DNA from: an uncultured Gammaproteobacteria bacterium
Lineage (GTDB): Bacteria > Patescibacteriota > Patescibacteriia > Magasanikbacterales > GWA2-37-8
DNA: 64,000 nt
NCBI GenBank assembly: GCA_964478235.1
Contig: CAYZGX010000004.1
Location: forward strand, 4,320-68,319
Direction of reading: 5' to 3'
Shown here: positions 12,502 to 42,691 of the stretch, one piece after another
Layout of the letters: every line of letters starts with the position of its first letter
How positions within the stretch are numbered: position 1 is the first letter of the stretch
Notes under the pieces: generated by a model
Database searches by the model: none
Told to the model about the DNA's origin: nothing
The model's input: only the letters and a program-made list of their open reading frames with translations
Made by a program: the position numbers and the translations under genes

Positions 12502-12506
12502 CACAA

Positions 12507-19190: not shown

Positions 19191-19225
19191 ATAAAAAGAC
19201 ACCCACAAGGGTGTCTTTTTATTGG

Positions 19226-19310
19226 CGGAGAGGGGGAGATTCGAACTCCCGAGGCCTTGCGGCCTGCAGCTTTAGCAAAGCTGGACGATAGACCACTCTG
19301 ACACCTCTCC
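19226..19310 (-). tRNA. tRNA-Ser (anticodon GCT), class II, CCA encoded (to 19223)
   Basis: Minus-strand read ggagagg tg ...cagct-ttgctaa-agctg, variable arm aggcc-gcaa-ggcct, T-arm gggag-ttcgaat-ctccc, acceptor cctctcc g CCA. The D-stem pairs poorly. A bidirectional terminator lies at 19197-19222. Confidence 0.7.
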
Positions 19311-21601: not shown

Positions 21602-21604
21602 AGG

Positions 21605-22195: not shown

Positions 22196-22206
22196 AGACA
22201 GATAGG

Positions 22207-24081: not shown

Positions 24082-24082
24082 A

Positions 24083-24766
24083 TTATTCTTCGGTTCGTAA
24101 TTCGTTCAAATTGCCCAACTCTTGGGATAAAGCAATATCAGTATTATACGTCGAAAAGTACAGTTCGATAAGCGACTGAGTATCGAGACGCACGGTGGTG
24201 AGCCCCATCGAGCTCAAGCCCGACTCAATTTGGCGCACTCGGCTATCTAAATCATATTTGCGCTTAGTAAATCGTTCGCCTTTGAGCTTGATCACCGAGG
24301 CTGGATTGACCACTTCGCCCATTCTGGCAAAAAATCCTTTATTTTTGTTGGAGCTTGGATCGTAGGGTACGACAACGTAAAACTGCTTGTTCATAATTTC
24401 GCCAAGCGATACGAGCTCGCTCACAAAGGCTCGATAATCGGCAATTTGCGTGCGAAGTAATTCGTTAGTTTGATTTTTTTCTTGCTCCAACAGCTTATCC
24501 ATATACGGCTTGGTCTGGAGTTTGCGCGATTGGATCAAAATCTGGAGCGGATGATCGAGTGAATTTAAAAATGAAACGTAGCCCGAAATAATCGCACTTT
24601 GTTCATCTTCGTTTTTGAGGGCGAAGTTGATACTCGACACCATAATGACCGCTCGAAGCGTACCATCTTTCATCACCACCGTGTCTTGCTTGATTTCTGA
24701 AATCAAAAGATGGTGCTGGGTGGAAGGCATTTTTGGTTTTTTTTGAACTGGCTTTGTATCTTTCAT
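24083..24766 (-). CDS. VirB4-family N-terminal domain as a separate ORF
   Basis: VVMKDGTLRAVIMVSSINFALKNEDEQSAIISGYVSFLNSLDHPLQILIQSRKL is typical of the N-terminus of Gram-positive conjugative VirB4. The stop is TAA, followed by 1 nt, then the ATG of the next ORF. Confidence 0.6.
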   Translation of the reverse strand: MKDTKPVQKKPKMPSTQHHLLISEIKQDTVVMKDGTLRAVIMVSSINFALKNEDEQSAIISGYVSFLNSLDHPLQILIQSRKLQTKPYMDKLLEQEKNQTNELLRTQIADYRAFVSELVSLGEIMNKQFYVVVPYDPSSNKNKGFFARMGEVVNPASVIKLKGERFTKRKYDLDSRVRQIESGLSSMGLTTVRLDTQSLIELYFSTYNTDIALSQELGNLNELRTEE

Positions 24767-24769
24767 ACA

Positions 24770-25201
24770 TTATTCCCCTTTATAATAACCGCCCGTATTC
24801 ACCATGAGTGATAAATCTCGGATGCGCGTATGCGAGGCGGACTTGGTCAAATCTGCTTTCTCCTCAACTTTTTCTGGCTCATTATCTTTCATAATCGCTT
24901 TGAGCTCAGCAACGGTATTAAATTTATTCCAGGCTCGGCGACTTGGACGGCGGGTAGTCTGGAGAATATTCAGCAAGAAAAAATGAAACGGTTGGCCGTT
25001 GATAGTAGCAAAGGCAAAAATCAGGGTGAGCCCGCCGATCAGGGCGAGAAGCACAATAAAGAGCGATGTATCGGCAAATTTAAATGATAAAAAACACAGC
25101 AAACCACCAACTAGGATAATCACAAATTGACGGCTCGTAATTGGCCCAAAAATTTTATCCTCCACGTCAATAAATTGTGGCACCATGAATTGGTTCATCA
25201 T
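24770..25201 (-). CDS. VirB3/PrgI/TcpE-like small membrane protein
   Basis: 143 aa with two TM helices, immediately upstream of VirB4 as in Gram-positive T4SS loci. Confidence 0.45.
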   Translation of the reverse strand: MMNQFMVPQFIDVEDKIFGPITSRQFVIILVGGLLCFLSFKFADTSLFIVLLALIGGLTLIFAFATINGQPFHFFLLNILQTTRRPSRRAWNKFNTVAELKAIMKDNEPEKVEEKADLTKSASHTRIRDLSLMVNTGGYYKGE

Positions 25202-26445
25202 AGGTAGTCGAGTTGACGCTCCATAGTTATAATCGCTTGCATTTCCAGGAATGTAATTGTTTTAGTATCGGTGAGAGCGCTAAGCGGAGTCTTGCCGGCA
25301 AGCGCATGAATCGCTGTCGTTACATATTCTCCGTAGAGCGGTGACGCTTTCCAAGCATCAAGCGCTTCGAGATATAGCAAAATTGACTCGCCTTGTAGGT
25401 TGATAAACTTTTGTTTGAGGCGAAGAGCTGCTTCTTCAGGTTTGTTTGAAAGCCGACGGAAATCGGTGAGACCAAACGAGCGAATTTCGTCGGTTGGACC
25501 AACTGCTCCAGGTTTGGCAATAATATCTTTCATTGACGATTTTGCTCGCGAGTCGGCGGCGAGTTTCATAAACGGATCTTCGGCAGCAGTAGTTTTGGTG
25601 AATGTTTCAATGACTTTCTCTTTCGTGAGCGGAGCGGCTGGGGTTGAAGCTGGTCGAGGCGACACCACCGGCATTGGGCGTGGAACAACAGGGGTAGCGA
25701 CCGGCTGAGCGGTCATTGGCTTTGGTGCTGGCTGGAAAGCCGGCTTTGACGGAGTAGCCTGAACAACCGGCTTAACTGGAGCAGGTGCCACTGGTTTTGG
25801 CGAACTCGTTGCCTCTTGGCCATGTTTGAAAGCATTAAATGGTGTGGTGGTGGCTGGTAGTTCTTTTTTGTACGGAATAAGATCTTCAAAGCCTGGAAGA
25901 TGTTTCAAAACTTCGTGAGCCTGGTCGCGAGTGAGACCAACTCCCCCATCTTGTTCAGATCGACTGAGCGCTTCTTCTACCTGATCAACACTACGAATAT
26001 CTTTGAGGCGAAGCTGAATCAAAGTGCGAAGACGGTTGAGATTATTTTTAGAAACAGTAAACGATAATTTTCCGATGATTTCATCGGCTTGAGCATCACG
26101 CGGCAAACTAATCAGTGGTGCGCCAGAGCTGGTTTTTGGAGCTGGCTCTTCGAGGAGTGAGGACATGTCAGCTTTTGGCAGAGCTGACTTGGCTAGGCGA
26201 GGTGGTGCGACTGGTGAAGTCGCTACTACCGGCTTTTGCTCAGGAGCAGGCTCAACTGGTAAATTATCCGGCACGACAACGGGTGGTTTTTCTGGAACAG
26301 AGGCAACCTGAGTCGGAACGGCTGGAACTGGAGCTGGCGAAGCCGATGCTCCAGCTTTTTTTTGACGAATCTCATCAAGGCTCATGCGCACCATAGTGCC
26401 ATCAGCTTTTTTGACAAGAATTGTTTTTCCTCCTGTGTCGGCCAT
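25198..26445 (-). CDS. hypothetical Pro/Ala/Val-rich protein
   Basis: 415 aa with low-complexity PVxP tracts. ATGA overlap with the downstream gene. Confidence 0.5.
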   Translation of the reverse strand: MADTGGKTILVKKADGTMVRMSLDEIRQKKAGASASPAPVPAVPTQVASVPEKPPVVVPDNLPVEPAPEQKPVVATSPVAPPRLAKSALPKADMSSLLEEPAPKTSSGAPLISLPRDAQADEIIGKLSFTVSKNNLNRLRTLIQLRLKDIRSVDQVEEALSRSEQDGGVGLTRDQAHEVLKHLPGFEDLIPYKKELPATTTPFNAFKHGQEATSSPKPVAPAPVKPVVQATPSKPAFQPAPKPMTAQPVATPVVPRPMPVVSPRPASTPAAPLTKEKVIETFTKTTAAEDPFMKLAADSRAKSSMKDIIAKPGAVGPTDEIRSFGLTDFRRLSNKPEEAALRLKQKFINLQGESILLYLEALDAWKASPLYGEYVTTAIHALAGKTPLSALTDTKTITFLEMQAIITMERQLDYL

Positions 26446-26452
26446 AAAAATA

Positions 26453-27499
26453 TTATTTTAAAAGCGCTTCGTTCCATTCAAACGCGCCAGTTTGTTCGTT
26501 GTAGACATACAACTCTCGTATTGTATCATCGTTATACTTTACTGCCCACTCTTCGAGCATACCAAGCACCGCTTCAGGATCTTCAAATTGCCCATCTTCA
26601 CTCTGTTTGAATTTACTTTGGGCAACAAGTTGAATATCTAGATAGGTTGGTTTTGGGGTTGGAGCGGCAGCAACAGAAGGTTTTACAGCTGGCTTTGCTT
26701 CGGTCTTTGGGGCGGTTTGTGGGGCTGGAACTGGCTCAGTAACAGCCGAAGAAGGCCCCTCGCCTACAACCTTGCCAGCAAGCGCTCGCTTATATTGCAC
26801 AGCGCCTTCTTCAATATAGGCGTCGATCGCATCAGCCATGCTTGGATTAGTATAGGCCTGCACTGTAGCCCAAATTGACGACGGCTCGCGCTCGGTAAAG
26901 AAGTCGTATAACCCAACGAGTTGCTCGATCAACTCTTTATCTTCAGCAATAGAAAAGCGCATTGCCCCCTCATCATTTTTCGCAAAAAAGGTATCTTTAA
27001 TTTTTCCCATGACTTCGGCCACTTCGAGCGAGGTAGTGGTGCTCAATTTTGTTCGTTTAATATCGGTGATAAGATCTTTAACCAGCACATCTTTTCCTTG
27101 CCACACCCCGACAAACGCCTCAGATTCAAAAAAGGCTTGGCGAATATCTGCATAAAGTACGGCCATATCTTTGTCATCAAGACTGCGTGAAGCCAAATAC
27201 CACATGATTGTTTTCCAGACATCAAAATCAAGAGTAAAGGCCATTGCAATCTGCCGACCAATCACTATCTTTACAAAGGTATCGCGATCGAGCTCAGCAT
27301 AGAGCTTCCAGGATAGCTCTGTATACAATCTAAAATACGTCCAGCGATACAAACTATCAACCCGAGCATTTTCTCCTTTAAAATCTTCGTGGAGTTTGCC
27401 CCAGGTAACCAAAAGATCTTCAGGTTTTTTATGCCCGCTACGAATAGCTTGTTCAATCGCTTCAAACGATTGTATACTGACTTGTTTAACAAACAACAT
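26453..27499 (-). CDS. hypothetical protein (T4SS operon)
   Basis: 348 aa with no recognisable domain. Confidence 0.5.
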   Translation of the reverse strand: MLFVKQVSIQSFEAIEQAIRSGHKKPEDLLVTWGKLHEDFKGENARVDSLYRWTYFRLYTELSWKLYAELDRDTFVKIVIGRQIAMAFTLDFDVWKTIMWYLASRSLDDKDMAVLYADIRQAFFESEAFVGVWQGKDVLVKDLITDIKRTKLSTTTSLEVAEVMGKIKDTFFAKNDEGAMRFSIAEDKELIEQLVGLYDFFTEREPSSIWATVQAYTNPSMADAIDAYIEEGAVQYKRALAGKVVGEGPSSAVTEPVPAPQTAPKTEAKPAVKPSVAAAPTPKPTYLDIQLVAQSKFKQSEDGQFEDPEAVLGMLEEWAVKYNDDTIRELYVYNEQTGAFEWNEALLK

Positions 27500-27542: not shown

Positions 27543-30500
27543 CTAAGGGTTCGCTGGTGGTTGAGGTGGCGGAGGTGTACCAGCGGCACCGCTTTGACCT
27601 GCATTATTACGATTCTGTCTATTTAAATTATCAATAACGCCCTTAACATAATTCTTTTGGTTAGCATCTGTCATACGCTCATAGGCAAACTGCAACATCT
27701 GCGCCAAACCACGGCTATCTTTGGCACTTTTTACTAACTCATCAACCAACTCCTGTGTCTTGCCCCCTGAATTATCCAAAATTTCAGCGAAGTCTGCCTT
27801 GACGTATTCATCAATACTAGAAGTAATGTTGTTGGTAACTGGCGCTACCATTTTCACTACGATATTCTTAGATTCGTCAGATTTGACGACGTATTTACCA
27901 TTTGTATTTTTATCTACCGAACCACCAAAGCCGGCTAAAGTGGTAATTTTAGAGCCGGACAACGCATTGTCACGACGACCTTTCACATAACTTAAGCCAT
28001 CAGAATCATCTTTTGTAAGCACTGTTTTGAGCTGACCATCTGGTAGTGTTTCCACACTGAAAAGACCAGCTAAACTTAGCGCACCTTGACCAGCGGCTTT
28101 TTCAGACTCAAGACGAATTTGCGAGCGTAGTTCTTCAGGAAGAGAGCTAAACTCCCGCTCAACATCAGCCTCACTTACCGCTTTATTTAAAATAGCGCTA
28201 AGACGCTGAGCTTGATTTCTTTTTAGCGCAGGAGCTGCAATTTCAACACTTGAATCAAGCGGAATGTTGGCCCCTGCTTTATTAAGTTCTTTTAATACTG
28301 TCATCTGAATACCTTCAGCGTAGGCAGCGTGACGATCCAAATTACCAATAGACATTTCAATAGCGCCTTGTCGCAACTGATTCAAGGCTGCTGCAGCTTC
28401 TGCTGCTTGCGCTGGGTTTCCTGCTGAAGCCAAAGCTCTTTCGGCATCTTGTACTCTTTTCAACTGCGCAAGACTACGGGCCATAGCGGAGATGAAGTCA
28501 CCAACAACCTGAGCTTCAATTTTAACTTTAGCTTGCTTATCAAGTGTTTTTTGTAAATTAGTGGCTTCGCTAGCGCGATTGTTGCGAGTGAGATATTCGT
28601 CGCGAGCCTTGGCAACTTCTCGTTCTCGCTCAGTGCTTGTTTTATATTCCACCTGCTCAGTGACAGCTTTGGCGGCAAAAAAACCTGGAACACGTTCTTG
28701 AGCGGCCAACGTTTGTTCGGAACGAACAGCCTGACGACCAGCTTCATCGCGCTCGGCGGCTGCTTTTGCACCAAAGACATCAGCTTTTTGTTCGGCTGCC
28801 AAGACACTGGCTTCGCGCTTACTTTCTACACCAGCTTGAACAACATTTTTTTCTGCTTCATATTTAAACACTTTAGCTTTTTGTTCGGCAGCTAGAATTT
28901 GTTCGGCATTTTTAGCTTCAATCTGTGCTTCAGCGGCTTTAGTGTTGGCTCGAGCGCCAAGAATTATACCTTCTCGTTCATGGAATGTTTCATCGCCTTT
29001 TTCCATTAATTTAAGCTCATGCATGGCGTATTTTTCTGCTCGTTTTGCTTCGGAATGTTGTTCGATTTGATGTTCACGAACACCTAAATCAAGCTTGAGC
29101 TGACCTTGCCATGATTTACTCGTGCTGTAGGTTTCTTCCACAATAACCTCCTGCATGTGCGCAGCCTTTTCAACATCTTCTAGACGCTTCTCAGCACGAC
29201 CGCGGGTTTCAACAATCATAGCACCGAGTGTGCCAAGCTTACCGGCCAAACCAGCTTTTTCTTTATTTTTATCAACAGTCCCTTGCTGTTTGGCGAGCTC
29301 TGCCTGTTCTTTTTCTGTCAAACCGCCGCCGGTTCGCTGTTTCTGTTCGAGACGAGCAATTTCTTTTTTAGCAGCAACTGTTTCTTCGATAGCTTTAGCT
29401 TGCGCGTTACGTTTTTCATCAGATTTTCCAATAGCAATTTTTGCCACGTTCAAACCGGTTTCAGCCAAGCGAACGGCTGGACGAGCGGCATATTTAAGAG
29501 CTTCTTTGCCTGCTTCAGCACCTTTATCAACAGCCCATCGTGCCGCCATCGCACCACTGGCATACATACCAACTTTCTTGCCAAAATCCACTGCTTCACC
29601 AGCCCATTCGCCACCGACGCCACCAAGCTGACTGGCAGCACGAGCGCCGACCATCAACATACCAATAGCGATAGCGAAATTGGCCATATTGTTCCAATCC
29701 CAGGCCGCACCAACACCCGATGCCTGATCACCCAAAATACTGTCGGCGTCGGCCGTGTTAATTACCGAGCCACCAGCGATTTCATCATGCACCTTGCCGT
29801 TGCCAGCAGTGACAAAAGCGAGCCAGATAAAAAACAACAACACCGGACCGGTGATGACGTTGGCTGTAAATTCACTCCACCACTGATTAGCATATTCTTC
29901 GGTTTGTGGAAGTACGCTCAACACAAACGCGAGTGGCGACAAAACAATCAGCACCCAGAGCACCACCATGCGGGCAATCAACATGAACAAAATAGCCAGC
30001 ATCATTCCCATCGCAATAGAGGCAAAGACGAGCGAACCAACTGAGGCTAGGAAAATATTCGTATTATCAAAAGTTTTTGGATCAGCACTGGTGGAGAGTT
30101 CGCGAATCTTGTCCAAATTAAACATCTGAATTAAATTACCGCCAGCAGTGGCGGCAATACCGTTCACAAAAGTAATCATCACTACTTGCGCAACATCAAT
30201 CACGACACCACAAATAGTTCGACTAAAGTTCACCAGAATAGCGGCCATCACCATTTTTACCAACATTTTTTTCCATTCGTAATGTTCCAGGCCAAGAATG
30301 GTGCCAAAAGCAATGACTAATAAAATCACAACAAAACCCATGTTGGTAATATCTCGGACCATCACCCAACCAACATTGACGGCGGAGGCATTTAAGAAAT
30401 CGTTATAGCCCGCGAGCTCAATAATAAAACTGAGCGCAAACATGGTGAGCGACAAACACAAGCGAGCGAGCGCCAAAATAATACTGGTGAGAAGCGACAA

Positions 30501-30701
30501 CCAAAAGCCTGGGCTCGAGATGCCATCGGTGGCAGTCTGTACACCTGGGGCTGTTTCGCCGGCAGCAAAAGCCGGGTGAACACCTGCTATTGCCATCGCA
30601 CTTACGATACCAAAAAACATCGCCACACCGATGGTTTTTCGATGGCGATAGAGTGACTTTTTCCATGACGAGACTACTTTTTGGACAAGCTCAAAAGACA
30701 T
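27543..30701 (-). CDS. VirB6/TrbL-like polytopic membrane protein with long C-terminal coiled-coil/Ala-Lys-Glu-rich extension
   Basis: 1052 aa with an N-terminal signal peptide, at least 6 TM helices in the first 450 aa, a coiled-coil-rich C-terminus and a PPPPQPPANP tail. Confidence 0.55.
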   Translation of the reverse strand: MSFELVQKVVSSWKKSLYRHRKTIGVAMFFGIVSAMAIAGVHPAFAAGETAPGVQTATDGISSPGFWLSLLTSIILALARLCLSLTMFALSFIIELAGYNDFLNASAVNVGWVMVRDITNMGFVVILLVIAFGTILGLEHYEWKKMLVKMVMAAILVNFSRTICGVVIDVAQVVMITFVNGIAATAGGNLIQMFNLDKIRELSTSADPKTFDNTNIFLASVGSLVFASIAMGMMLAILFMLIARMVVLWVLIVLSPLAFVLSVLPQTEEYANQWWSEFTANVITGPVLLFFIWLAFVTAGNGKVHDEIAGGSVINTADADSILGDQASGVGAAWDWNNMANFAIAIGMLMVGARAASQLGGVGGEWAGEAVDFGKKVGMYASGAMAARWAVDKGAEAGKEALKYAARPAVRLAETGLNVAKIAIGKSDEKRNAQAKAIEETVAAKKEIARLEQKQRTGGGLTEKEQAELAKQQGTVDKNKEKAGLAGKLGTLGAMIVETRGRAEKRLEDVEKAAHMQEVIVEETYSTSKSWQGQLKLDLGVREHQIEQHSEAKRAEKYAMHELKLMEKGDETFHEREGIILGARANTKAAEAQIEAKNAEQILAAEQKAKVFKYEAEKNVVQAGVESKREASVLAAEQKADVFGAKAAAERDEAGRQAVRSEQTLAAQERVPGFFAAKAVTEQVEYKTSTEREREVAKARDEYLTRNNRASEATNLQKTLDKQAKVKIEAQVVGDFISAMARSLAQLKRVQDAERALASAGNPAQAAEAAAALNQLRQGAIEMSIGNLDRHAAYAEGIQMTVLKELNKAGANIPLDSSVEIAAPALKRNQAQRLSAILNKAVSEADVEREFSSLPEELRSQIRLESEKAAGQGALSLAGLFSVETLPDGQLKTVLTKDDSDGLSYVKGRRDNALSGSKITTLAGFGGSVDKNTNGKYVVKSDESKNIVVKMVAPVTNNITSSIDEYVKADFAEILDNSGGKTQELVDELVKSAKDSRGLAQMLQFAYERMTDANQKNYVKGVIDNLNRQNRNNAGQSGAAGTPPPPQPPANP

Positions 30702-31146: not shown

Positions 31147-32022
31147 ATGCGCAGCATGTATCTGAAGGGGCTCCTCGGAGCCATCACCCTTTCTCTCGCG
31201 GTCGCTTGCGGCCCCGGGACGCCCGGCAACCCGGACGGCAACGACATCGGCAACGATGGCGGAGCTGTCTCGGAGAAGGTCGCTGTCAAGAACGTCCAGA
31301 TCGTCGATCTGCAGAAGAACCAGGCCACCTTCAACTTTGAGGTTGTGGGCCAGCCCGTGAGCGTCACGGGTACTTGTAAGACGGTCGGCACCACCGACTG
31401 GCACCAGGAAGGGTACGCTGTAAAGATCGGAGGAGGACGGTTCTCCTACACGGCGGGTCTCAACCCCCGCCTTCTGCCCGACACGGCCTACGAATTCGTC
31501 GCGACGGCCATTGACACCGACGGCGCCACGAGCGAGGTTACGATCTCGTTCACGACGCCCAAGGATGTTCCGGTGGAAGATCCGATGTGGACGTATGCCA
31601 AGGCGGTGATTCAGGGCAAGTACAATGTGGCACGTGAAGACGTGAACGAGCTGGTTGACCCCAACCACATTCGTCTCTCAACCACCTCAACGACGAAGTG
31701 CCCGACCGGCAAGAAGCTCTCGGGCCTCGGCTGGGAGGACTCTATCTGTTTCGACCCGGTGACCCTCACCGGCCACCGCCAGATCGACAATGATCGGATC
31801 GACATCACCTTCGAGATGTGCAACGTCTCGGCGGTGAACGAGAACTTCCCCCAGTTCGCCGAGATCACCAACGCCTGGTGCCAGACGCATGTCTGCCCGG
31901 CCGAGTGTCTCGACCAGTGGGGGCAGCCTCGTAGCGCCCAACTCATCATGCGCAGCACTGAGCTGTTCATGGGCGTAACCACCAACGGAACGAATCTGAA
32001 GGTCGAGAACTTCAACAACTAA
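31147..32022 (+). CDS. hypothetical secreted lipoprotein (GC-rich islet 4)
   Basis: MRSMYLKGLLGAITLSLAVAC, a lipobox-like signal peptide. GGGGAGG lies 7 nt upstream. An upstream ATG at 31078 is possible. Confidence 0.55.
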   Translation: MRSMYLKGLLGAITLSLAVACGPGTPGNPDGNDIGNDGGAVSEKVAVKNVQIVDLQKNQATFNFEVVGQPVSVTGTCKTVGTTDWHQEGYAVKIGGGRFSYTAGLNPRLLPDTAYEFVATAIDTDGATSEVTISFTTPKDVPVEDPMWTYAKAVIQGKYNVAREDVNELVDPNHIRLSTTSTTKCPTGKKLSGLGWEDSICFDPVTLTGHRQIDNDRIDITFEMCNVSAVNENFPQFAEITNAWCQTHVCPAECLDQWGQPRSAQLIMRSTELFMGVTTNGTNLKVENFNN

Positions 32023-32158: not shown

Positions 32159-35100
32159 TTATTGCGCTGGAGCATCGGCTGGCACTACCACACGGCCAGT
32201 GCCATTACCAAATAATTGCCAAGAAGCTGGGCGAATACTTTTTGTAATTCGATCAACACAAGCGTCCGCAAAACACCCACCCTTAGCCGGGTTACAAGAC
32301 CCAGTACACCAACCCCAGTTATCTTGTGCATACACTTTTGGTTGGAAGACACAGAAACCGTTAGCAAAACTTCCGCCACCAGCCCCAATGTTACACAAGC
32401 CGTTTGGCTGACTAGTATCACTCGTGCTTCGGCAATAGTTTTCACTCGCCTGATTACATTCGTAGACATGATTTTTGAATTGGTAATAGCCAGCGTTACA
32501 CGTCTTGTCTTGGAGAATACCAAAGTGCTGTGACTGTCCAATGATTTCTGGACTACAAATGTCTAATGTTTGACAATCGTTGTTGCTGACGCAAGCAACA
32601 GTCGTCGTGACGCTAGCTGCCAACTCATTTGGGAAAACATTTTTCAGAATACAGCGTTTTGTCGCCGAGCCCGGAACAATCGCTTCACACGAACCATCTT
32701 TAGCCCCGCGTTGGTTGCGGTAATATGACGGATCGCCCGAGATATAATCATCACGAGTGTTGTCGCTATCGCCCCAATTGACGGCTAATTTACGAATCGG
32801 CATTTGATTGTTATCAGCAAAGGCAAAGAAGCGAAGCGAGACTGGTGTCCCAGCAGCAACCGGCACAATACCACCGGTATAGAACTGGTTATTAGCAAAC
32901 ACGGTGATACCTTTCCCGCCTTCCTGACAACGCTCTTTTCCACCAACAAATCGGCAGTTGCCGACAGCGAGGACGGTTGGAGCAAACCCAGAAGTACCGC
33001 GCACATCCCAGCCGTCGCCTTCTTCTTGGTAGGATTCTGGTGTATAACCACCGGTTGTTTTGGTTCGACAAGTTTGTTCACAGACAGCAGTGCGTTGCGC
33101 ATCGCCTAACATTGCTGTGGCGCTACAATAATTAGCGTTAGATAATTCGCCTCCACCAGAACTCGAGATAAAACAATCAGCCGGCACTGAGCAAGCCTGA
33201 CCTTCCATAGCAGCATTATAATCAATTTGATCATCAGAATTTGGCGGACGATAGCAAACCTGTGAATTGGTTGGGAATGTTGGACGAGACAATTCAAAAC
33301 GAGTCGCTTTGGCAAAAATCTTTTTAAGTTGTGTTACAAAACGATCATCTTCTTGCTGATACCCAACCGCTGTAGCATCACTGTCAAAATAGGTTTTAAC
33401 TTTTCTATCATTTGGACTATCAAAATACTCACCAATTGTGCATTTATATTGAGGATCAAACATGCGAGATTTGATAACCACTGCTCCCGGACCAAATCCG
33501 CTCAAACCAACATTAAGTGAAGTGGCGCTATACGGCAAACAATCACCACTTATTGAAGGGAAGGCATTTTCATCAACTTGCTTCCATAGATTTTGAGTAA
33601 AGCCCACAATAGTACTTGGATTATCCCCTGTCTCGTACAGTACCTTACAGCGATCTTCTGTTCGCTTTACTTCGAACTGCCCTGGGAATTCAGCTGGGTA
33701 ATTACCAACTGGTCGCCAATAGATACTAGACTCTGGCTTGACGCAATCAAAGCTGATTCTGATTTCGTCTTCACCGGCTGTATCAGGTCCACAGGCTGGA
33801 ACTGGTTGTTTGTTAATAAGTGTTACTTTTGGAACAAGTCCTGGTGCACACGCATCTTGCAGATTTCTCTCAACACTCCAATCAGCCATGTTTTTAACAT
33901 AGTTAGTAGAGCCAGCGACCATACAAGCCCAAGCGCCACCATCAAGTGTACACTCACTATTGTCACTACCTCGGTAGGTACCGTTTCTTACCAACGCTAT
34001 CGCTTCGGCCAAGCTTACCATATCACCATTAGCATTCTTAAATTTATTAATGATATCATTTTGACTCACAGCGCCATTAAACGAGCCGCCATTAAAGAAT
34101 TTTCCGTCACAATCGAGGTAATACGACAAGTTCGATGCATAGCCATACACCGCTTCCCAACGCTCAGACTGCGCGCAGTAGGTCGGCCCACCCTCAGCAT
34201 ACCCCAACTTACCAGCATCAAAACCGGCTTCCACAAATTGGTTGTAGAGATCAGCGGTACCATTGGTGCGCCCCGGGAACCAGGTGAGACACTGTTGGTC
34301 GTCTGGGTTGCCGTAGAGAACGCTGCGAGAATCTGTTTCTAAGCAATATCCGCGGTAGCCAAGCAATTTAGAGCTATTTGTTTGACGCTGACAAGTACCA
34401 TCCGGTGCGCAGTCACTATTTTGCGTACAGACTTTTTCTTGACTATCGGCTGTACGACCATTAGAACCACCGACACACAAACCAACCGGAACACCGGCCA
34501 CACGACACAAACCACCACCACTGCTACACTGGCTATCTTCGGTACACCCGGTGACCTCAGTATCATCAGTATAATCACCACCAACACAGACCAGACCGAC
34601 TGAGGCTGCTGGAGCTTTTATTAAACCTTCCGTCATGTTTGGCTTCTCGCGATTCCAATAGCGCACGAGGGCATCACCATAGTTGACTTTGGTGTAATCA
34701 CAGTCACAAGCTGTATTTGACGGAGAGCCATCGAGGCCTGGAACGGCAGTTTCGCCACACTTGTTGGCGAGGCCGTACACGGCGTTGTTGTTTTTGAGGA
34801 ACGTGGTGAATGGGAACGGAGCATCTTTTTCTGGATAGCCACGGCAAATCTGACTTTGAGCTTTTTCAAGTTCGCCAAAATCATTTTTACCATCAATGGT
34901 GCGAACGCAAGTTTTGTTGATACACAAACCTTGGTTGGTGAGTTTGCCACACACCTGACCATCTACTTTACACGAAGTACTCTTGTTTTGCTGAGTGATT
35001 GATAAGCCATCAGGGCAGTTTTGTCCACCACAAGGAATCGGCTTGATTAAACGGTAATCTTTTTTATCTGACGATGAAGTGAAGTTGATATCGGTCAATT

Positions 35101-38100
35101 CTTCAACTGGGTAGAGGCCTAAGATTGAGTAGCCAGTATAATCCATACCCGACCAGCCGATAGAGCGACTGCGGTAAATATCTTCGTTCAATACTTGGTT
35201 GGAGTAGTTGCTCTGCACCCAGCGCTTACATCCGCCGTTGCCATCTGACTCAGCACAGCGCTGAACATTCTCACAGATATCTTTATATTTACCTGTGTCA
35301 CGATCAAAAACAGTCTTGGAACCCTGACATTGCAACCATTCACCACATTCGCGATCGCGATTTACTTTGATGATGATATTACCGTCGTTAGCTGGATCAG
35401 CGGTCACTGGAGCTGGCACTTTGCGACCATTGTTGGCTTCGCTCGAAGCGTAGAGCGCTTTGGTGTTAAAGAATTTATTTGGATTGTCTACTTGATCAAA
35501 GACAGCACAGCCTTCTTTTTGGCTTACCTGACCAGCACAATCCCCTTCGCTCACGCGATTATCTTTCAAGAAATAGTACGATTTATTATTATCCGTGCGG
35601 TCGACAAACTGCGTACACGCATTTTGGTTAGTTGGACATTCACCAACAAAATTATTATATTGTGTGTTTTCCGAAGACCACAGACTATATTCACCATTAC
35701 TCAAATAGTTGCGATAACATGGTTGTGAGCCGACGTCGGTACAGGTATTACCAGCGCCACATTGGCTGTCTTGACTACAGTTCTTCCCAGCATCATTACT
35801 ACAGACACCAACACCTTTCCAGAACCAACCGTCGGATTGAACGGTGGTGAACCCCGCCCCGGTTGGGACTTTTACCGGCACACCCTTGGCATAGGCACAG
35901 ACTTTTTGTCCAGTGATAGCTGGATCTTTGAAATAACGAGTATCCGCACCGTCACTATAGGCGTTACAGCCAACAGCCTCAGCTCCGCAAAGCGCTGTGT
36001 CATAGAGAGCTGGGTCATTTTTGATAAGTGCTGTCGTAAACTGAGCACCGCCTGGGGTCAATTGCTGAGCGCCAGCAAAGGTACAGCCGAGATCGGCTTG
36101 ATTACACGTGGCCGCCTGGTTAGCTACCAAATACATTGGGTAGGTGCTAGTGGTGTCGGAAGGGATATAAATAGTGGACGAAACAAAGCCGTTGCTTGCC
36201 CCGCCTGAGAAGGTGGAAATGGCAGTTTTTATTTGCGCTGCTTCGTGGCCACGAACAGTAATATAACAGCCGGTATCGCCAGTTGGGATAACACAGGAAA
36301 AAGCTTCGCCGCCAATAGTAACTTGAGCGGTTGAACCGCCACGACCAGGAACCCAGACGTTATTAGCCGAGGCTTTGGTTTGTGATGGGGTGTTTTTGGT
36401 ATCTAGAACAGCGGTACAGCCAATAGCATTTTCGCGACACAAATAACTGAAACCAGTCAAATAGTAGTTACGGTTATTTTGATCAGCGTAAGCCGAGCAA
36501 CCGAGTGCCTCACCGGGCAAATTATCGGCGACATCGCTATCACAAATTGGATCAACGCTGAGTGATTTTTTAACTAAATACTGAAGATCGCGCACGCGAA
36601 CGACACGAACGTTATCTACAAACAACTGGGTGTTTGGCTGAGTACCCACAAACGAGATTTGTGTTGTTGAGGTGGTGTTGGAATAGGTAAACGGACCAAC
36701 GCGGTAGGTGTTCCAAGTGTCGTTGACCGGAGTGGCACCGACCGGCTGAGTCATTCCACCAACCCGCACCGAAATTGATCCGACATTGCCTTTGGCCCAG
36801 AAGGTGAGGTCATAGGTTTGCCCAGGAATAAGGGTGGTGGCGCGAGAAATTCCAGCAGCCGCAACAGCTGAGAAAGAGTGCTCGTTGACCCGAACAGATT
36901 CACTTGATAACGCTCCACCGCCCCAAGCCGACAAGGCTGACGTTGAAGTGACATTTTCAAAAGTGTCATTGAAGATAATTTCTACATTGTTACCAGCGTT
37001 GCCTTTATAGGCACGGCAGGTGTCAGCACTCGCTGAACAACTGCGACTTACTCCAGCGGTGTTTTCAGCACCACCTGGGAGACCATCATAGAAACAACTA
37101 CCTTCGCGGTATTCACCATTTTGGAAACATAATTTACAAACCCCTACTCCACCACTGGTGTCCCAGAAACCTTTAGCATCTGAACACGAGCCGGCAGTGT
37201 TGGTGGAGCCGTCAGAAACAGTATAGAAATCATTAGTGCTCAAACGATATGGCGTACAGGATTCGCTTACTGGGATAGTGTTAGACAGCAGGCGGTAGTA
37301 GACTTTTCCACTATCATCATTAAATTGACGACAATCGAGCGGTGCTGTGCCGTTCTTATATGATGTTTCAGTACATGAAGCGAGCTGTTCAGCTAACTCA
37401 GCGGTAGTTTTAAAAGAATATTTTGGCGCTCCAAGCGGACCATTAGAAATATCTTTATTTTCTACCAAAAGATAGGTTTTTAGTTGGAAACCACCTTGCA
37501 CTGAACCTTCGTAGGTAATAAAATTCTTACCCGCTTCTTTGCTTGGGTGGGCGCAGGTGCGCAAATAAGAAAAGTATTCAGTCTTTTCGAGGCCGCCTTG
37601 AGTGGTGCTCAAATTGGTGAAAGCGCTACAGCCTTCGTCAACCGCGGCACAAGCAGTACCAGACGATGGAATAATATAGGCAACACTTTGACCGCTTGAA
37701 TAGGTACTTGGCATTTCGCGATACGCATCGTAGCCGATACATTTAGCGTCACACTGATCGTTCCAATCAACTTGATTGCCGATGACTTCAGCTGGGGTGA
37801 ATTTCCCCGGCACACGCTCACTACCCCCGATAGTTGGAGTGTAAAAATTACAATTTACTTCTTCAGGAATACAGACACCGGAATAGTCTTTACAACTTGC
37901 TGAGCCATCAAGACGCGCTAAATCGGCGACAGTCATTGGCTGATCAACCATTAGCGTCGTTGGGTCGGCGTCGTAACATTTCAAATAGTCTGGAGCCTTT
38001 TTAACAAACAACGACTCCCCTGTCCCCGCTACTTTGAACGCTGAACAGCCAGCTGACCCGGCGGAACAACTGGTGGAAACTTTATTGTTGAAATAAATAC

Positions 38101-40039
38101 CGGTATTAGTGTCGTTGACAGAGCTGAAGGCACCTGGGGCAACCCAACTACCATTGGCGTTTTGAGTGAGACTATAGGCACGGCAGCCGACATTTTCTTG
38201 AGTACATGAAGCAGTATCGAGCGTGCGATACAAATAAGCTGCCTGACGGCCATTGGCGTCGGTGAAAGCACGACAGGTGGCATACTGTGGGGCACACGTC
38301 TGCGCATCAAACTTCCAAGTATTTTTTTCGCGAGTGCAGTACGCAAAATCATTACAATTGCCATTGGCATCAAAGGCAACACAGGTCTGAACATCAACAC
38401 ATTCTTGGAGGCGATCTGGCACGCCGTTGGTCAAAATGTTTGGGCCGTAGACCAAAGCGTTACATTTAGCTGGCGGAACTTTGAGCACCCAACTTGGATC
38501 AACTAAATGACAGAACGGGAAGTTGGAACTGGCGATACTTGGATCGGTTTGGCATTTCAAAAAGCCGTCAACCACTTCGGAAAGTCTCCATGGGCGATCT
38601 GGACTACTGTTTTTGGCGGCAATTTCAAAACCGAGCGGTAAAATACGCAATTGGCGCAACACTTGGATATTGCTATAACAGTAGGCTTTGTTGAAACAAT
38701 CTTTATCTTTGTTACGACCGTCGTTTTCAGCTGGAGGCAAGAGATACCAGTCGCCATGGAGCCAGCCTTGCGCAATCGCTTCTTGGATAGTCACCGGCTT
38801 GCCAAGCTGAGCTTGTTTGAAAGCCACGACCATCTGGTCATCCATGCGACAATTGTAGAGTCCTGGATTTTCAGGGCAGTTGCTAAGCTGAGAAATAAGA
38901 TCAAAACTTTCTACCGAATCAATTTTTACTGCTTGCAAATAACTAAAGAAGCTTTGGGCCACAGCAACACCACCGCCAGCAATACCATAGAACTCCCCAG
39001 CCAAGCCTTGTTGACTCTGGGCAAATGGACCGCCAGCTGTTCCGCCACTCGCTGGACACTTATCTCCAATACAACCAGCACCAAAGGGTAAAACACCTTT
39101 TTCTTGGAAGTTTTTGACCGCTGTACCCACCAGGGTATTTAAAAACAAAGATAAGGCCGCTGGAATGACCTTAATATCTCCGTTAGCTAGCAAAGCATTC
39201 AACTGATCGTTGGTGGCTTTTTGCTCTTTATCTGGAGTGTTGGCTTTGAATTGTTCGGCGATAAGCGGAGCGGGCGTCTGGATGTCACCGCTAACTTTAC
39301 TTTCTTTAGCTTTAAAACCTTGTCCTTCTTGGCGATCAAGGAGGAGGGCTTCTTTTTGTTGTTTAATGACATTGTTAATTTTTTCAGTGGTCTGACCGTA
39401 GAGACCGAGCGGACTGTCGTCAGTCGAGAGAGATAAACTAAATTGTTTGCTTAGTTGCGCCGTGCCACCATATTTACTTTTCCAAGCATCGCCATCGAGC
39501 CAAGTTTTGGTGAAATTAGAAAAAGTACAATTAGGGGTGCCTTGTGGGCCAGCAAATGTTGGGCCGGTAAACTGGGTGCGGAGACCGACTTTGAAAGCTA
39601 AGTCTAATTTAACATCGGGAATTTTACACAAATTAATACCACCAGCTTTACCAAGCTCATCAAGGGCAGTGCCAGCAGCGCCGTCGGCAACAGAAGATAA
39701 ATAGTCGCCAAAACCTTTGGTTTGGGCAAGTGGGGTTTGACCATTACCGCCAGTCGCGAGCCACACTGCTGAATCATAGGCCACTTTACGGATAGCATAA
39801 CCTACTGCCCGAACCACAGCGTTGACTGAAGCAGCTTTTAAACCTTCCCAAATAATAGTGAGGATGTCGTCTGCAGCTTTTGGAATATCGCTCGTCACAG
39901 TCACTGGAATTTGTGCTGAAGCAACCTGCGGAACCAAAATCGCCCCAAAACTGCTCACAGCAACGACAGCCACCATAGCCCAGGTGGTGAGAATTTTAGA
40001 AATCTTGGAAAACATACGTGGATGTACCGTTTTGAACAA
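32159..40039 (-). CDS. giant (2626 aa) secreted/membrane-anchored Cys-, Gly-, Asn-, Thr-rich surface protein
   Basis: A single uninterrupted ORF with an N-terminal hydrophobic signal/anchor (WAMVAVVAVSSFGAILVPQVASAQ) and over 150 Cys residues. Confidence 0.8.
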   Translation of the reverse strand: MFKTVHPRMFSKISKILTTWAMVAVVAVSSFGAILVPQVASAQIPVTVTSDIPKAADDILTIIWEGLKAASVNAVVRAVGYAIRKVAYDSAVWLATGGNGQTPLAQTKGFGDYLSSVADGAAGTALDELGKAGGINLCKIPDVKLDLAFKVGLRTQFTGPTFAGPQGTPNCTFSNFTKTWLDGDAWKSKYGGTAQLSKQFSLSLSTDDSPLGLYGQTTEKINNVIKQQKEALLLDRQEGQGFKAKESKVSGDIQTPAPLIAEQFKANTPDKEQKATNDQLNALLANGDIKVIPAALSLFLNTLVGTAVKNFQEKGVLPFGAGCIGDKCPASGGTAGGPFAQSQQGLAGEFYGIAGGGVAVAQSFFSYLQAVKIDSVESFDLISQLSNCPENPGLYNCRMDDQMVVAFKQAQLGKPVTIQEAIAQGWLHGDWYLLPPAENDGRNKDKDCFNKAYCYSNIQVLRQLRILPLGFEIAAKNSSPDRPWRLSEVVDGFLKCQTDPSIASSNFPFCHLVDPSWVLKVPPAKCNALVYGPNILTNGVPDRLQECVDVQTCVAFDANGNCNDFAYCTREKNTWKFDAQTCAPQYATCRAFTDANGRQAAYLYRTLDTASCTQENVGCRAYSLTQNANGSWVAPGAFSSVNDTNTGIYFNNKVSTSCSAGSAGCSAFKVAGTGESLFVKKAPDYLKCYDADPTTLMVDQPMTVADLARLDGSASCKDYSGVCIPEEVNCNFYTPTIGGSERVPGKFTPAEVIGNQVDWNDQCDAKCIGYDAYREMPSTYSSGQSVAYIIPSSGTACAAVDEGCSAFTNLSTTQGGLEKTEYFSYLRTCAHPSKEAGKNFITYEGSVQGGFQLKTYLLVENKDISNGPLGAPKYSFKTTAELAEQLASCTETSYKNGTAPLDCRQFNDDSGKVYYRLLSNTIPVSESCTPYRLSTNDFYTVSDGSTNTAGSCSDAKGFWDTSGGVGVCKLCFQNGEYREGSCFYDGLPGGAENTAGVSRSCSASADTCRAYKGNAGNNVEIIFNDTFENVTSTSALSAWGGGALSSESVRVNEHSFSAVAAAGISRATTLIPGQTYDLTFWAKGNVGSISVRVGGMTQPVGATPVNDTWNTYRVGPFTYSNTTSTTQISFVGTQPNTQLFVDNVRVVRVRDLQYLVKKSLSVDPICDSDVADNLPGEALGCSAYADQNNRNYYLTGFSYLCRENAIGCTAVLDTKNTPSQTKASANNVWVPGRGGSTAQVTIGGEAFSCVIPTGDTGCYITVRGHEAAQIKTAISTFSGGASNGFVSSTIYIPSDTTSTYPMYLVANQAATCNQADLGCTFAGAQQLTPGGAQFTTALIKNDPALYDTALCGAEAVGCNAYSDGADTRYFKDPAITGQKVCAYAKGVPVKVPTGAGFTTVQSDGWFWKGVGVCSNDAGKNCSQDSQCGAGNTCTDVGSQPCYRNYLSNGEYSLWSSENTQYNNFVGECPTNQNACTQFVDRTDNNKSYYFLKDNRVSEGDCAGQVSQKEGCAVFDQVDNPNKFFNTKALYASSEANNGRKVPAPVTADPANDGNIIIKVNRDRECGEWLQCQGSKTVFDRDTGKYKDICENVQRCAESDGNGGCKRWVQSNYSNQVLNEDIYRSRSIGWSGMDYTGYSILGLYPVEELTDINFTSSSDKKDYRLIKPIPCGGQNCPDGLSITQQNKSTSCKVDGQVCGKLTNQGLCINKTCVRTIDGKNDFGELEKAQSQICRGYPEKDAPFPFTTFLKNNNAVYGLANKCGETAVPGLDGSPSNTACDCDYTKVNYGDALVRYWNREKPNMTEGLIKAPAASVGLVCVGGDYTDDTEVTGCTEDSQCSSGGGLCRVAGVPVGLCVGGSNGRTADSQEKVCTQNSDCAPDGTCQRQTNSSKLLGYRGYCLETDSRSVLYGNPDDQQCLTWFPGRTNGTADLYNQFVEAGFDAGKLGYAEGGPTYCAQSERWEAVYGYASNLSYYLDCDGKFFNGGSFNGAVSQNDIINKFKNANGDMVSLAEAIALVRNGTYRGSDNSECTLDGGAWACMVAGSTNYVKNMADWSVERNLQDACAPGLVPKVTLINKQPVPACGPDTAGEDEIRISFDCVKPESSIYWRPVGNYPAEFPGQFEVKRTEDRCKVLYETGDNPSTIVGFTQNLWKQVDENAFPSISGDCLPYSATSLNVGLSGFGPGAVVIKSRMFDPQYKCTIGEYFDSPNDRKVKTYFDSDATAVGYQQEDDRFVTQLKKIFAKATRFELSRPTFPTNSQVCYRPPNSDDQIDYNAAMEGQACSVPADCFISSSGGGELSNANYCSATAMLGDAQRTAVCEQTCRTKTTGGYTPESYQEEGDGWDVRGTSGFAPTVLAVGNCRFVGGKERCQEGGKGITVFANNQFYTGGIVPVAAGTPVSLRFFAFADNNQMPIRKLAVNWGDSDNTRDDYISGDPSYYRNQRGAKDGSCEAIVPGSATKRCILKNVFPNELAASVTTTVACVSNNDCQTLDICSPEIIGQSQHFGILQDKTCNAGYYQFKNHVYECNQASENYCRSTSDTSQPNGLCNIGAGGGSFANGFCVFQPKVYAQDNWGWCTGSCNPAKGGCFADACVDRITKSIRPASWQLFGNGTGRVVVPADAPAQ

Positions 40040-40042
40040 TGA

Positions 40043-40657
40043 TTAAGGGCGTGGCGATGTTTTGGCACTCGAGCTAGCATAGGCCGCGGCGGCCATAGCC
40101 AACAATTCTTTATCACTTAGACTTTTAACTACTGCTTCATCAAGACCACCGGCAATAAGGAGTGACCGCACCTGCGCTGGATCAGATAACACCGAGCGAA
40201 TATCTCCTGTTTCAGAAACATCTATCATTTGGGGCTCAACGAGAGTTGAGGTGGCACTAATCGACAAATTACCTTCTCCAGATACAATTGGATTGTCGCA
40301 TTGTTGTCCAGCTGGGCAGTTTGGATTTTGTCCTTTTTCAACTTCCTGCTTATCACTCACACCATCAGAGTCAGTATCTTTCAAATACGGACTGGTCTGG
40401 TATACATATAATTCATCAAAATCATTGAGGCCATCAAAATCAGTATCACGAAAACGAAGCGCTTCTGGCGAATTAACTTCGTCTTTCAAACTTCCTGGAA
40501 CAGTGTTCGTTAGGGCAAATGGCGCATAGAGACGATTGCGGATTTGAAGCGCCCCAAGAGCCACGCTAATAAGCGCAAAAATGAGCAGTAAAGCTACGCC
40601 GAGCTTCTGCTCATGAGAAAACCGTGGCGGCAACGTTTCATTGTCCGTACCGTCCAT
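40043..40657 (-). CDS. membrane-anchored protein with thrombospondin-type-3-like Ca-binding repeats
   Basis: N-terminal TM helix, then DTDFDGLNDFDE / DTDSDGVSD repeats. Stop is 3 nt before the giant gene start. Confidence 0.6.
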   Translation of the reverse strand: MDGTDNETLPPRFSHEQKLGVALLLIFALISVALGALQIRNRLYAPFALTNTVPGSLKDEVNSPEALRFRDTDFDGLNDFDELYVYQTSPYLKDTDSDGVSDKQEVEKGQNPNCPAGQQCDNPIVSGEGNLSISATSTLVEPQMIDVSETGDIRSVLSDPAQVRSLLIAGGLDEAVVKSLSDKELLAMAAAAYASSSAKTSPRP

Positions 40658-41548: not shown

Positions 41549-42691
41549 CTATTCAGCTTTAAGACCGGCATCAGTGTAGCGATTGGAGGCGTTCCACATC
41601 AACCAGCCAGCATTACTATATTTTTCAATTGTCTCAATTTGCGCTCGGATTTTTGAGGCATCATAGACTGCTCCGAGATGAAAAGCTTGAATCCACGGGC
41701 GCACCTCGGCGCGAGCACCAGCAAACCACGGCATGCCTTTTTGCATACCGTTATCAAAAACAAGCGCTGGGTGTTCGGCGGGATTTTTGAGTCCCAAATG
41801 CCCCGACGGATAGTGCGATGGATACATCATTGGCGCGATGTAATCAACTTCATTCACGGTATCGGCCAAACGCTGACCAATACTCATATCATCTTCGCCA
41901 CTTTTTTCCATGACAAATCCAAACAAATCAAGTGAGGTCAAAACTGGCTCTGGCTTCATCTTGGCGTTCACATATTTATAAAATCTAGCCATGGTTTCAT
42001 ATTTTTTGCCCGTACTGCTCGCGTAGAGGACCTGGCTCATGTTACCATCAGACGGAAAGCGGACGTAGTCAAAATTAATTTCATCAAAACCATAGGTTGC
42101 CGCTTCTTTGGCTAGCGCGAGATTATACTCCCACACTTCCTGCTTGGTAGGATCAACCCAGAGTAGTCCTTTATGATCATGCCACAAACCGCCACGCTTA
42201 TCTTTGATCGCCCATTCGGGCTTGGCGCGAGCCAGGGCCGGATCTTGAAAAACAGTTTGTCGAGCAATCACATAAATAGCATTGTCGTGCAATGTCTTTA
42301 TAATAGTTTCTAGATTTGGTAACCGATTGTCTTTTAGTTTTTTGTCAACTGCCAAGGGTACTTTGGTGTCGTAAAGTACAAGCCCGCTATAATCTTTAAT
42401 ATCAATAATCACACCATTTAATTCGGTGCGGTTAATCAGGTCGATCATTTCAGCCATTTTTTTAGGACTCCCTGCTGAATAGGCAGTGAGGTAAATCGCT
42501 TTGACGGTTTGCCGAGCCGGCTTGCTTCGCTGAACTGGCGGCGGAGCTTGTATTGGCGCAATAAGAGCTTGAGATATACCATAAATCTCCGCTCCAGCCT
42601 CTTTCCAGGCAGTAGCAACACCAAAAAAACTAACACCAGCTACAACGAGCAAGCTGGTAAAAGAGACGGCTGGTGAAACCACCTGAGACAT
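41549..42691 (-). CDS. membrane-anchored TIM-barrel glycoside-hydrolase-like protein (DUF4015/GH-like)
   Basis: N-terminal TM helix plus motifs GFDEINFDYVRFP and WVDP, typical of GH-like hypothetical hydrolases. Confidence 0.45.
   Translation of the reverse strand: MSQVVSPAVSFTSLLVVAGVSFFGVATAWKEAGAEIYGISQALIAPIQAPPPVQRSKPARQTVKAIYLTAYSAGSPKKMAEMIDLINRTELNGVIIDIKDYSGLVLYDTKVPLAVDKKLKDNRLPNLETIIKTLHDNAIYVIARQTVFQDPALARAKPEWAIKDKRGGLWHDHKGLLWVDPTKQEVWEYNLALAKEAATYGFDEINFDYVRFPSDGNMSQVLYASSTGKKYETMARFYKYVNAKMKPEPVLTSLDLFGFVMEKSGEDDMSIGQRLADTVNEVDYIAPMMYPSHYPSGHLGLKNPAEHPALVFDNGMQKGMPWFAGARAEVRPWIQAFHLGAVYDASKIRAQIETIEKYSNAGWLMWNASNRYTDAGLKAE

Follow-up and report, generated by a model that had tools for sequence, protein, structure and literature searches.

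The locus described here lies in a 64,000-nt stretch of contig CAYZGX010000004.1 (assembly GCA_964478235.1), hereafter the window, to which all coordinates refer. It contains the gene for a giant, cysteine-rich protein, followed on the same strand by a cluster of genes resembling those of type IV secretion systems (T4SSs). The open reading frame (ORF) of the giant protein is uninterrupted, as an initial annotation of the window had reported, and occupies 32159-40039 on the minus strand, with 2,626 codons counted from TTG. Translation probably begins at the ATG at 40015 rather than at the in-frame TTG at 40039, as the homologues begin at the equivalent Met and their N-termini align at this position. 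The coding sequence is accordingly placed at 32159-40015 (minus strand) and yields a protein of 2,618 amino acids. Its 116 Cys residues make up 4.4% of the sequence, an approximately 7-fold enrichment over the mean of 0.65% in the 32 other window proteins, and the GC content of the gene equals that of the remaining window. The annotated richness in Cys was borne out, as was that in Gly (9.9%), Asn (6.4%) and Thr (7.5%), but not that in Trp, whose share of 1.3% is ordinary. The many CxxC and C-N-G stretches that had been described were likewise not recovered; CxxC occurs once, at residue 968, and C-x-[NG]-G twice. The recurrent Cys motif is C-x6-C-[RSTN]-[AQ]-[FY]; approximately 12 copies lie within residues 574-1503, and an aromatic strand usually precedes them. 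Self-BLAST, carried out as a check for internal repeats, revealed no domain repeats beyond this motif. A scan for promoters and terminators was uninformative, with fewer promoter-like sites than in shuffled sequence.

The protein was proposed to carry an N-terminal signal and to be extracellular, and both proposals are supported. Residues 1-34 (39914-40015, minus strand; MFSKISK...VPQVASA↓Q) form a predicted Sec-type signal peptide, the sole strong hydrophobic segment of the protein, with a basic n-region, an h-region of approximately 20 residues and an ASA↓Q cleavage-type site. The signal peptide was judged by inspection and by a pattern count across the family, and on this basis displays the n-h-c layout and the small residues at -3 and -1 that characterize Sec substrates of signal peptidase I. 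Of the 126 family members that begin with Met, 72 match an AxA↓Q-type site and most of the others show a related AxA-type site; an n-h-c signal peptide was seen at every such N-terminus that was inspected. Between residues 1 and 1950, 73 of 85 Cys residues are at least 90% conserved (165 sequences), and 90% of the 165 members have an even Cys count. Together, the conserved signal peptide, the near-invariant Cys residues and the even Cys counts argue for an extracytoplasmic fold held by disulfides, and the giant protein is predicted to be exported and to depend on many disulfides for its fold. Such disulfide-rich export fits the enrichment of MdbA/VKOR-type disulfide oxidoreductases reported for lineages belonging to the candidate phyla radiation (CPR) (bioRxiv 10.1101/335083). 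Neither an LPXTG motif nor a C-terminal transmembrane (TM) segment was found in the giant protein or in any family member. A conserved [IV][IV]VAP(x) motif closes or nearly closes the C-termini of the family (32162-32200 in the window); this motif may serve in sorting or processing, or may represent no more than the final β-strand.

The mature protein can be divided into seven regions, all given here with their minus-strand coordinates. Residues 35-360 (38936-39913) constitute a conserved, Cys-poor N-terminal region that is predicted to be helical, albeit with AlphaFold2 (AF2) predicted local distance difference test (pLDDT) values below 50. It contains a conserved hydrophobic helix at approximately residues 283-306 (Kyte-Doolittle hydropathy of 1.5 at 274-300) and has no match in Pfam, NCBIfam or the PDB. 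It is followed by an α/β domain (residues 361-500, 38516-38935; pLDDT ~80), in or near which the Cys pairs 380/389, 440/446 and 488/502 are conserved, and by a first disulfide-rich β region (residues 501-1005, 37001-38515) that contains C-x6-C-[RSTN]-[AQ]-[FY] hairpin motifs and was modeled with mixed confidence. Residues ~1006-1148 (36572-37000) form a β-sandwich resembling carbohydrate-binding modules (CBMs) of families 4, 9 and 22. A second disulfide-rich region (residues 1149-1940, 34196-36571) ends at a conserved boundary motif, DLYNQFVEAGFDAGKLGY, beyond which lies a hypervariable, polymorphic region of 405 residues (1941-2345, 32981-34195; pLDDT <35). The protein ends in a conserved C-terminal domain (residues 2346-2618, 32162-32980) that contains a DNWGWC motif and is predicted to be all-β (pLDDT ~75-85); no match to this domain was found in the PDB or in the viral structure database BFVD.

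The CBM-like domain was found by three independent methods. The Pfam family CBM_4_9 (PF02018) matches the giant protein with an E-value of 1.2e-5 and a score of 26.1 bits, just at the cut-off of 25.9, and matches 8 of the 17 family members that were scanned. Foldseek aligned the modeled region with the CBM22 structure 4xuo (E 2.3e-6, TM-score on the target 0.62) and with the CBM4-2 structure 2y64 (E 2.4e-6); the pLDDT in this region is ~80 and the model has the β-jelly-roll of CBM4 and CBM22. Searching the PDB with the single sequence of the giant protein returned zero matches, but a profile of 30 family sequences identified the CBM4 structure 1gui with an E-value of 3.6e-5, and matched CBM4-type structures only. 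Residues ~1006-1148 are predicted on these grounds to be a CBM4/9/22-like, sugar-binding-type module. The module differs from CBM4, CBM9 and CBM22 in being embedded in a non-enzymatic protein, and its Pfam score is barely at the threshold. For the rest of the protein, no known fold was recovered in the Foldseek searches of two AF2 models or in the PDB sequence searches. Pfam and NCBIfam searches with the whole protein, with the 17 members and with separate regions recognized the CBM-like module alone. An AF2 model of residues 1-1200 (pLDDT 59) contains a confident α/β section at ~370-490, a confident β-rich section at 780-1190 and the helical, low-confidence segment at 35-360, and retrieved solely CBM22, CBM4 and CBM16 jelly rolls from the PDB. 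A second model covering residues 1419-2618 (pLDDT 54) is moderately confident, and β, at 1460-1950 and 2346-2618 and essentially unmodeled between these sections; Foldseek returned nothing significant for it in the PDB and nothing in BFVD. A similarity to tail fibers was considered and is unsupported, as the search of the viral models in BFVD gave no match.

As for presence and length across related genomes, the family proved to be well conserved. We detected 182 homologues of the giant protein, nearly all of them full length at 2,500-3,300 amino acids and every one labeled hypothetical, from metagenome-assembled genomes (MAGs) of Magasanikbacteria and other Patescibacteria. A scan of one genome per species returned 452 matching stretches, and the best 80 of the 452 are almost all labeled Magasanikbacteria. 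Each of the 79 distinct loci that were returned apparently carries a single copy of the gene. These matches identify the giant protein as a member of an unannotated family specific to Magasanikbacteria (Patescibacteria/CPR), whose proteins measure about 2,500-3,500 amino acids and occur in several hundred genomes of this lineage. Many MAG records that carry a Magasanikbacteria-type locus are titled 'uncultured Gammaproteobacteria' (L004, L006, L009, L011 and others; binchicken co-assemblies), and one each is titled 'Methanoregula sp.' and 'Candidatus Udaeobacter sp.'; these titles are probably taxonomic label or binning errors. Two of the longer homologues, P0037 (2,922 amino acids) and P0061 (3,300 amino acids), contain insertions of ~280-330 amino acids within the conserved body, which in P0037 are located near query residue ~1433-1457 and in P0061 both there and near ~1040-1060. 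Precomputed Pfam matches assign NHL/SBBP/SGL-type β-propeller repeats to both proteins, which suggests a modular gain of extra binding domains.

Homologues align with the giant protein over residues 1-1950 and 2340-2590, but not between. In the closest relative, locus L004, amino acid identity to the window is 87-98% over residues 1-1800, with dN/dS ratios of 0.01-0.05 at a dS of ~1. The ratio rises to 0.11 for residues 1801-1951, of which residues 1901-1940, with 39 of 40 identical, are the last conserved stretch; from residue 1941 onward identity falls from 95-98% to about 25% (range ~20-30%) and dN reaches ~0.8-1.0. The body of the protein is thus under strong purifying selection. The loci L007 and L083 have a comparable dS, and between them the variable region has an ω of 0.12-0.25 compared with 0.03-0.07 for the body. 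Since the region evolves just moderately faster here at a similar dS, the difference between the tails of the window and L004 points to recombinational replacement on top of relaxed constraint. Incongruence between body and tail further supports such replacement. The homologues P0064 and P0079 are 0.82 identical in the body, 0.29 in the variable region and 0.47 in the C-terminal domain, whereas the corresponding values for P0064 and P0081 are 0.78, 0.70 and 0.77. BLAST searches with the 405-residue variable region of the window matched 3 of 120 homologues, and a search of 1.84 billion representative proteins gave one match at E ≤1e-3, which is weak and partial. A sparse skeleton is nevertheless kept within the region: C2123 is invariant, and C2192 is ~97% conserved in an alignment of 58 sequences and at least 90% conserved in one of 30. 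The variable region is probably one fold with hypervariable surfaces. No silent copies of it occur elsewhere in the window, and no orphan cassettes were seen.

Directly upstream of the giant gene is a gene on the same strand for a 204-residue membrane protein (40043-40657, minus strand), whose stop lies 27 nt before the ATG of the giant gene. As initially described, this protein has one TM segment, predicted to be oriented N-in, and acidic repeats of the thrombospondin type 3 (TSP3) kind; it also contains a CxxxxxC pair and, toward its C-terminus, a conserved motif. The repeats are two DxDxDGxxDxxE motifs, DTDFDGLNDFDE and DTDSDGVSDKQE, both conserved in 77 orthologues. The match to Pfam TSP3_bac (PF18884) is sub-threshold (E 9e-4, 19.4 bits against a cut-off of 25), and the weak NCBIfam matches involve TSP3 regions in MtsD and CglD. 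The tight coupling of the two genes is a family-wide feature, as the TSP3 gene immediately precedes the giant gene in 78 of 82 loci with a median gap of ~18 nt. The same repeat type was reported to recur fused to an L,D-transpeptidase, and this was also confirmed. The transpeptidase gene (52510-53349, minus strand) encodes a YkuD domain (E 1e-22) preceded by a TSP3-type repeat (TSP3_bac, E 1.6e-4), and BLAST aligns its product with the 204-residue protein at 45% identity over 51 amino acids. The calcium-dependent assembly that had been proposed from these repeats is not upheld, as it rests solely on two sub-threshold TSP3 motifs in a neighboring protein.

On the other side of the giant gene, the cluster of T4SS-like genes had been placed directly beside it. 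The two are in fact separated by a 1.46-kb spacer that contains a convergent gene on the plus strand (31147-32022), which ends 137 bp from the stop of the giant gene. It encodes a predicted lipoprotein of 291 amino acids with 8 Cys residues and the lipobox MRSMYLKGLLGAITLSLAVA↓C (LSLAVA↓C). A convergent, Cys-rich, lipoprotein-like ORF of 120-290 amino acids whose end is no more than 450 bp from the stop of the giant gene is found in 40 of 62 loci, compared with a background rate of 2.6% for lipoprotein-like features among 1,195 ORFs, and independent gene calls place a convergent gene in L003 and L083. The sequences in this position are highly diverse. BLAST groups the 40 lipoproteins into 27 clusters, of which 23 contain a single sequence; unrelated lipoproteins can occupy loci whose giant bodies share 76% identity, and the sole homologue of the window lipoprotein, in L005, is 36% identical to it. 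Lipoprotein similarity correlates weakly with similarity of the variable region, and no better than with that of the body. The cassette thus combines a giant protein whose tail is polymorphic with a hypervariable neighbor tethered to the membrane; the lipoprotein may act as an anchor or co-receptor for the tail, or as its immunity-like partner.

The presence of a cluster with VirB4, TrsD, PrgI and VirB6-like genes downstream of the giant gene and on the same strand was confirmed. Its first gene encodes a VirB6/TrbL-like polytopic protein (27543-30701, minus strand) of 1,052 amino acids with ~8 hydrophobic segments in the first 300; it was identified through a weak NCBIfam match to CD3337/EF1877, and its orthologue in L001 has a weak match to TrbL. 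The rest of the cluster (20915-27499, minus strand) comprises p348, p415, a PrgI/VirB3-like protein (24770-25201, minus strand; PrgI E 8e-10), TrsD (24083-24766, minus strand; 227 amino acids, E 9.5e-9), VirB4 (22207-24081, minus strand; a 624-residue ATPase, VirB4/TraG P-loop E 1.5e-28), p196 and, after these, a ComF-like protein (20915-21601, minus strand). The T4SS of ABY1-class Patescibacteria derives from the monoderm MPF-FATA type (MPF, mating-pair formation) and is without a relaxase (PMC12102498). The window agrees with this description in that VirB4, TrsD, PrgI/VirB3 and VirB6-like proteins occur together, the latter on weak matches, and none of the window proteins scanned showed a relaxase domain. 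The VirB4 function is divided between the TrsD-like protein of 227 amino acids and the 624-residue ATPase (22207-24766), and the ComF-like gene comes after the cluster, an arrangement that matches the ABY1 pattern (PMC12102498).

Linkage of the giant gene to this cluster was counted over the 54 loci whose sequence extends 6 kb or more downstream. In 46 of them a VirB6-like gene is located downstream, on the strand of the giant gene and 0.24-9.4 kb from it, with p348, p415, PrgI, TrsD and VirB4 further on. In several loci the VirB6-like gene comes directly after the giant gene with gaps of 240-800 bp. In L076 (4096-14102) the order is VirB6-like (1,052 amino acids), p300 and giant, with neither the TSP3 gene nor ksgA upstream; this is an independent arrangement in which the giant gene is embedded in the cluster and the T4SS link is kept.

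We propose that the giant protein is a Sec-exported, disulfide-stabilized surface structure that serves as the host-contact or specificity partner of the T4SS-like machine, a functional reading to which we assign a probability of roughly 0.5. The annotated role in host attachment, and that of a partner of the T4SS, are both reasonable in light of the extracytoplasmic, disulfide-rich nature of the protein, its coupling to the TSP3 protein, the downstream cluster and L076. Once exported, the giant protein would be held at the cell surface by the TM-anchored TSP3 protein, the variable lipoprotein or both, as the mature protein has no anchor of its own, and would form a rigid structure projecting from the cell. 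Contact with the envelope of a host bacterium would be made by the CBM-like module and the polymorphic C-terminal region, and would dock and stabilize the adjacent MPF-FATA-derived machine on a particular host, a role akin to that of the mating-pair-stabilization adhesins of conjugation systems. Specificity for a host or strain would be determined by the variable region, which diverges quickly and is at times exchanged through recombination.

Several known systems offer partial parallels. In MPF-FATA systems an adhesin replaces the conjugative pilus for cell contact, and a survey of patescibacterial T4SSs found no PrgB-type adhesin (PMC12102498). With neither such an adhesin nor a relaxase in that survey, the known components of the CPR machine do not include a contact factor. 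Like PrgB-type adhesins, the giant protein is a large, Sec-exported surface protein, by prediction, that is encoded with a monoderm-type T4SS, but it lacks an LPXTG anchor, PrgB-type domains and homology to them, CBM_4_9 being its only Pfam match. The nearest functional analogue, without homology, is TraN of F-like plasmids, which has 22 conserved Cys residues, all predicted to be disulfide-bonded, and a variable tip that selects the recipient surface protein (PMC9246713). The likeness is one of analogy only: TraN is T4SS-encoded and surface-exposed, and joins a disulfide-rich conserved core to a variable part that chooses the partner. The giant protein has the disulfide-rich core, the variable region and the T4SS-linked gene, and binding of a partner is attributed to it by analogy only. 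TraN is, however, an outer-membrane protein of diderms with ~600 amino acids, whereas the giant protein is four times larger, belongs to the CPR, accompanies a monoderm MPF-FATA-type T4SS, and has a CBM-like module and a variable part near its C-terminus. The TraN family in Pfam was not matched by the giant protein at E ≤0.1 or by the 17 members at E ≤0.05. Large Cys-rich extracellular proteins have also been described in Peribacteria, another CPR lineage; these average 1,655 amino acids, have a signal peptide, vary between strains and were suggested to function in attachment (Anantharaman et al. 2016, PMC4736985). They resemble the giant protein in size class, signal peptide and very high Cys content, but come from a different phylum-level lineage and from a 14-gene cluster rather than a single T4SS-linked cassette gene, and the comparison is by description only. 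The general kind, a large Cys-rich CPR exoprotein proposed for attachment, is already known from that work (PMC4736985).

A more far-reaching version of the proposal concerns the cassette as a whole. The TSP3 anchor protein, the giant protein and the convergent lipoprotein might together be an undescribed three-gene polymorphic recognition module that is coupled to the repurposed T4SS of Magasanikbacteria, in which the exchangeable tail and its cognate lipoprotein set which host is docked, and which supplies the missing contact and specificity component of the T4SS. We advance this version tentatively, as possible rather than probable.

A number of observations weigh against a dedicated role in host contact. 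The confidence of the AF2 models is low overall (pLDDT 54-59) and about 90% of the giant protein lies outside known folds and families. Its body is as conserved as housekeeping enzymes (median identity 45%, compared with 50% for KsgA), which is unusual for an adhesin. The giant and T4SS genes do not form one transcript in the window, where the convergent gene separates them, and 8 of the 54 loci lack an adjacent T4SS cluster. Conservation of the linkage to ksgA (76 of 82 loci), sua5 (66 of 82) and prfA (59 of 82) equals or exceeds that of the linkage to the T4SS, part of which may be inherited synteny within one order. The degree of conservation, the apparently single copy per locus, the strength of the prfA-sua5-ksgA linkage and the loci without an adjacent T4SS would also be explained if the giant protein served Magasanikbacteria as a general scaffold of the envelope or surface layer, without a specific role in the T4SS, its exposed part diversifying against phages or predators and its position beside the T4SS reflecting synteny. 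Flagellins and S-layer proteins, moreover, typically combine a conserved body with an exposed part that is hypervariable. A scaffold is harder to reconcile with L076, where the giant gene sits inside the T4SS cluster and away from both ksgA and the TSP3 gene, or with the loci in which the VirB6-like gene follows the giant gene at 240-800 bp, and Pfam scans of the giant protein and the 17 members detected no S-layer-type or wall-binding (SLH, CWB) domains. We regard this explanation as rather unlikely, although it deserves serious consideration.

The architecture of the locus also recalls that of polymorphic toxins. WapA, CdiA and Rhs are giant exported proteins with a constant body, a sharp junction, a recombining, variable C-terminus and a variable small neighboring gene, and WapA is Sec-dependent, as the giant protein is predicted to be. 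Under such a model of contact-dependent competition the body would deliver a variable toxic module, with the lipoprotein acting as immunity protein at the outward-facing side of the membrane; the sharp junction at residue ~1941, the recombinational replacement beyond it, and an adjacent small gene that is positionally conserved yet hypervariable would all be expected. The variable part of the giant protein is, however, internal, and is followed by a C-terminal domain conserved across the family up to its extreme C-terminus, while the skeleton of C2123 and C2192 argues for one fold rather than a series of unrelated toxins. No toxin, Rhs/YD or FHA domains were found by Pfam and NCBIfam in the giant protein, in the 17 scanned members or among the precomputed Pfam matches of 120 members. 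The small gene, here a lipoprotein gene, is convergent rather than co-directional, no orphan cassettes were seen, and the similarity of the lipoproteins tracks the variable region no better than the body. A toxin is on balance improbable. That the giant protein might be a substrate or effector translocated by the T4SS, or the subunit of a pilus-like polymer, as the initial annotation had also suggested, has nothing in its favor but proximity to the T4SS genes, and we consider it very improbable. A Sec signal and ~50 disulfides are incompatible with recognition in the cytoplasm and unfolded passage through the VirB4/coupling-protein pathway, and the conserved signal peptide and the ~50 disulfides predicted for the giant protein led us to reject it as a T4SS substrate. 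A pilus was rejected as well, as there is no pilin-like N-terminus, no sortase motif, and no internal repeats or repeated subunit architecture.

How CPR bacteria (Patescibacteria) recognize and attach to their hosts, and what purpose a relaxase-less T4SS-like machine serves in them, are open questions on which the giant protein may bear. With a constant body and an exchangeable tail, its family shows the evolutionary signature of a specificity determinant, and the host-contact reading makes it a concrete candidate for what sets host specificity in this uncultured lineage. In the literature searched we found no description of the family, of the C-x6-C hairpin body, of the exchangeable tail, of the three-gene cassette or of a conserved T4SS link. 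The protein provides testable handles as an antigen for localization, through comparison of its alleles with host co-occurrence, and through glycan binding by the CBM-like module. New sequence families that could be modeled are the C-x6-C hairpin body, the lipoprotein slot of the cassette and the conserved C-terminal domain.

Further features were noted around the locus. Just past the ComF-like gene, on the opposite strand, a 527-residue ORF (19360-20943, plus strand) has a hydrophobic N-terminus, no Cys residues and no Pfam match. A tRNA-Ser (GCT) was predicted at 19223-19310 (minus strand), which Rfam did not report at its gathering threshold, and ARAGORN placed another tRNA-Ser with the anticodon ACT, which would have an unusual A34, at 12415-12502 (plus strand), where Rfam supports a tRNA. 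Between sua5 and ksgA is a DUF4015 glycoside-hydrolase-like gene (41549-42691, minus strand; E 5e-100) whose product has an N-terminal hydrophobic segment; a DUF4015 gene occupies the same position in 47 of 82 related loci.

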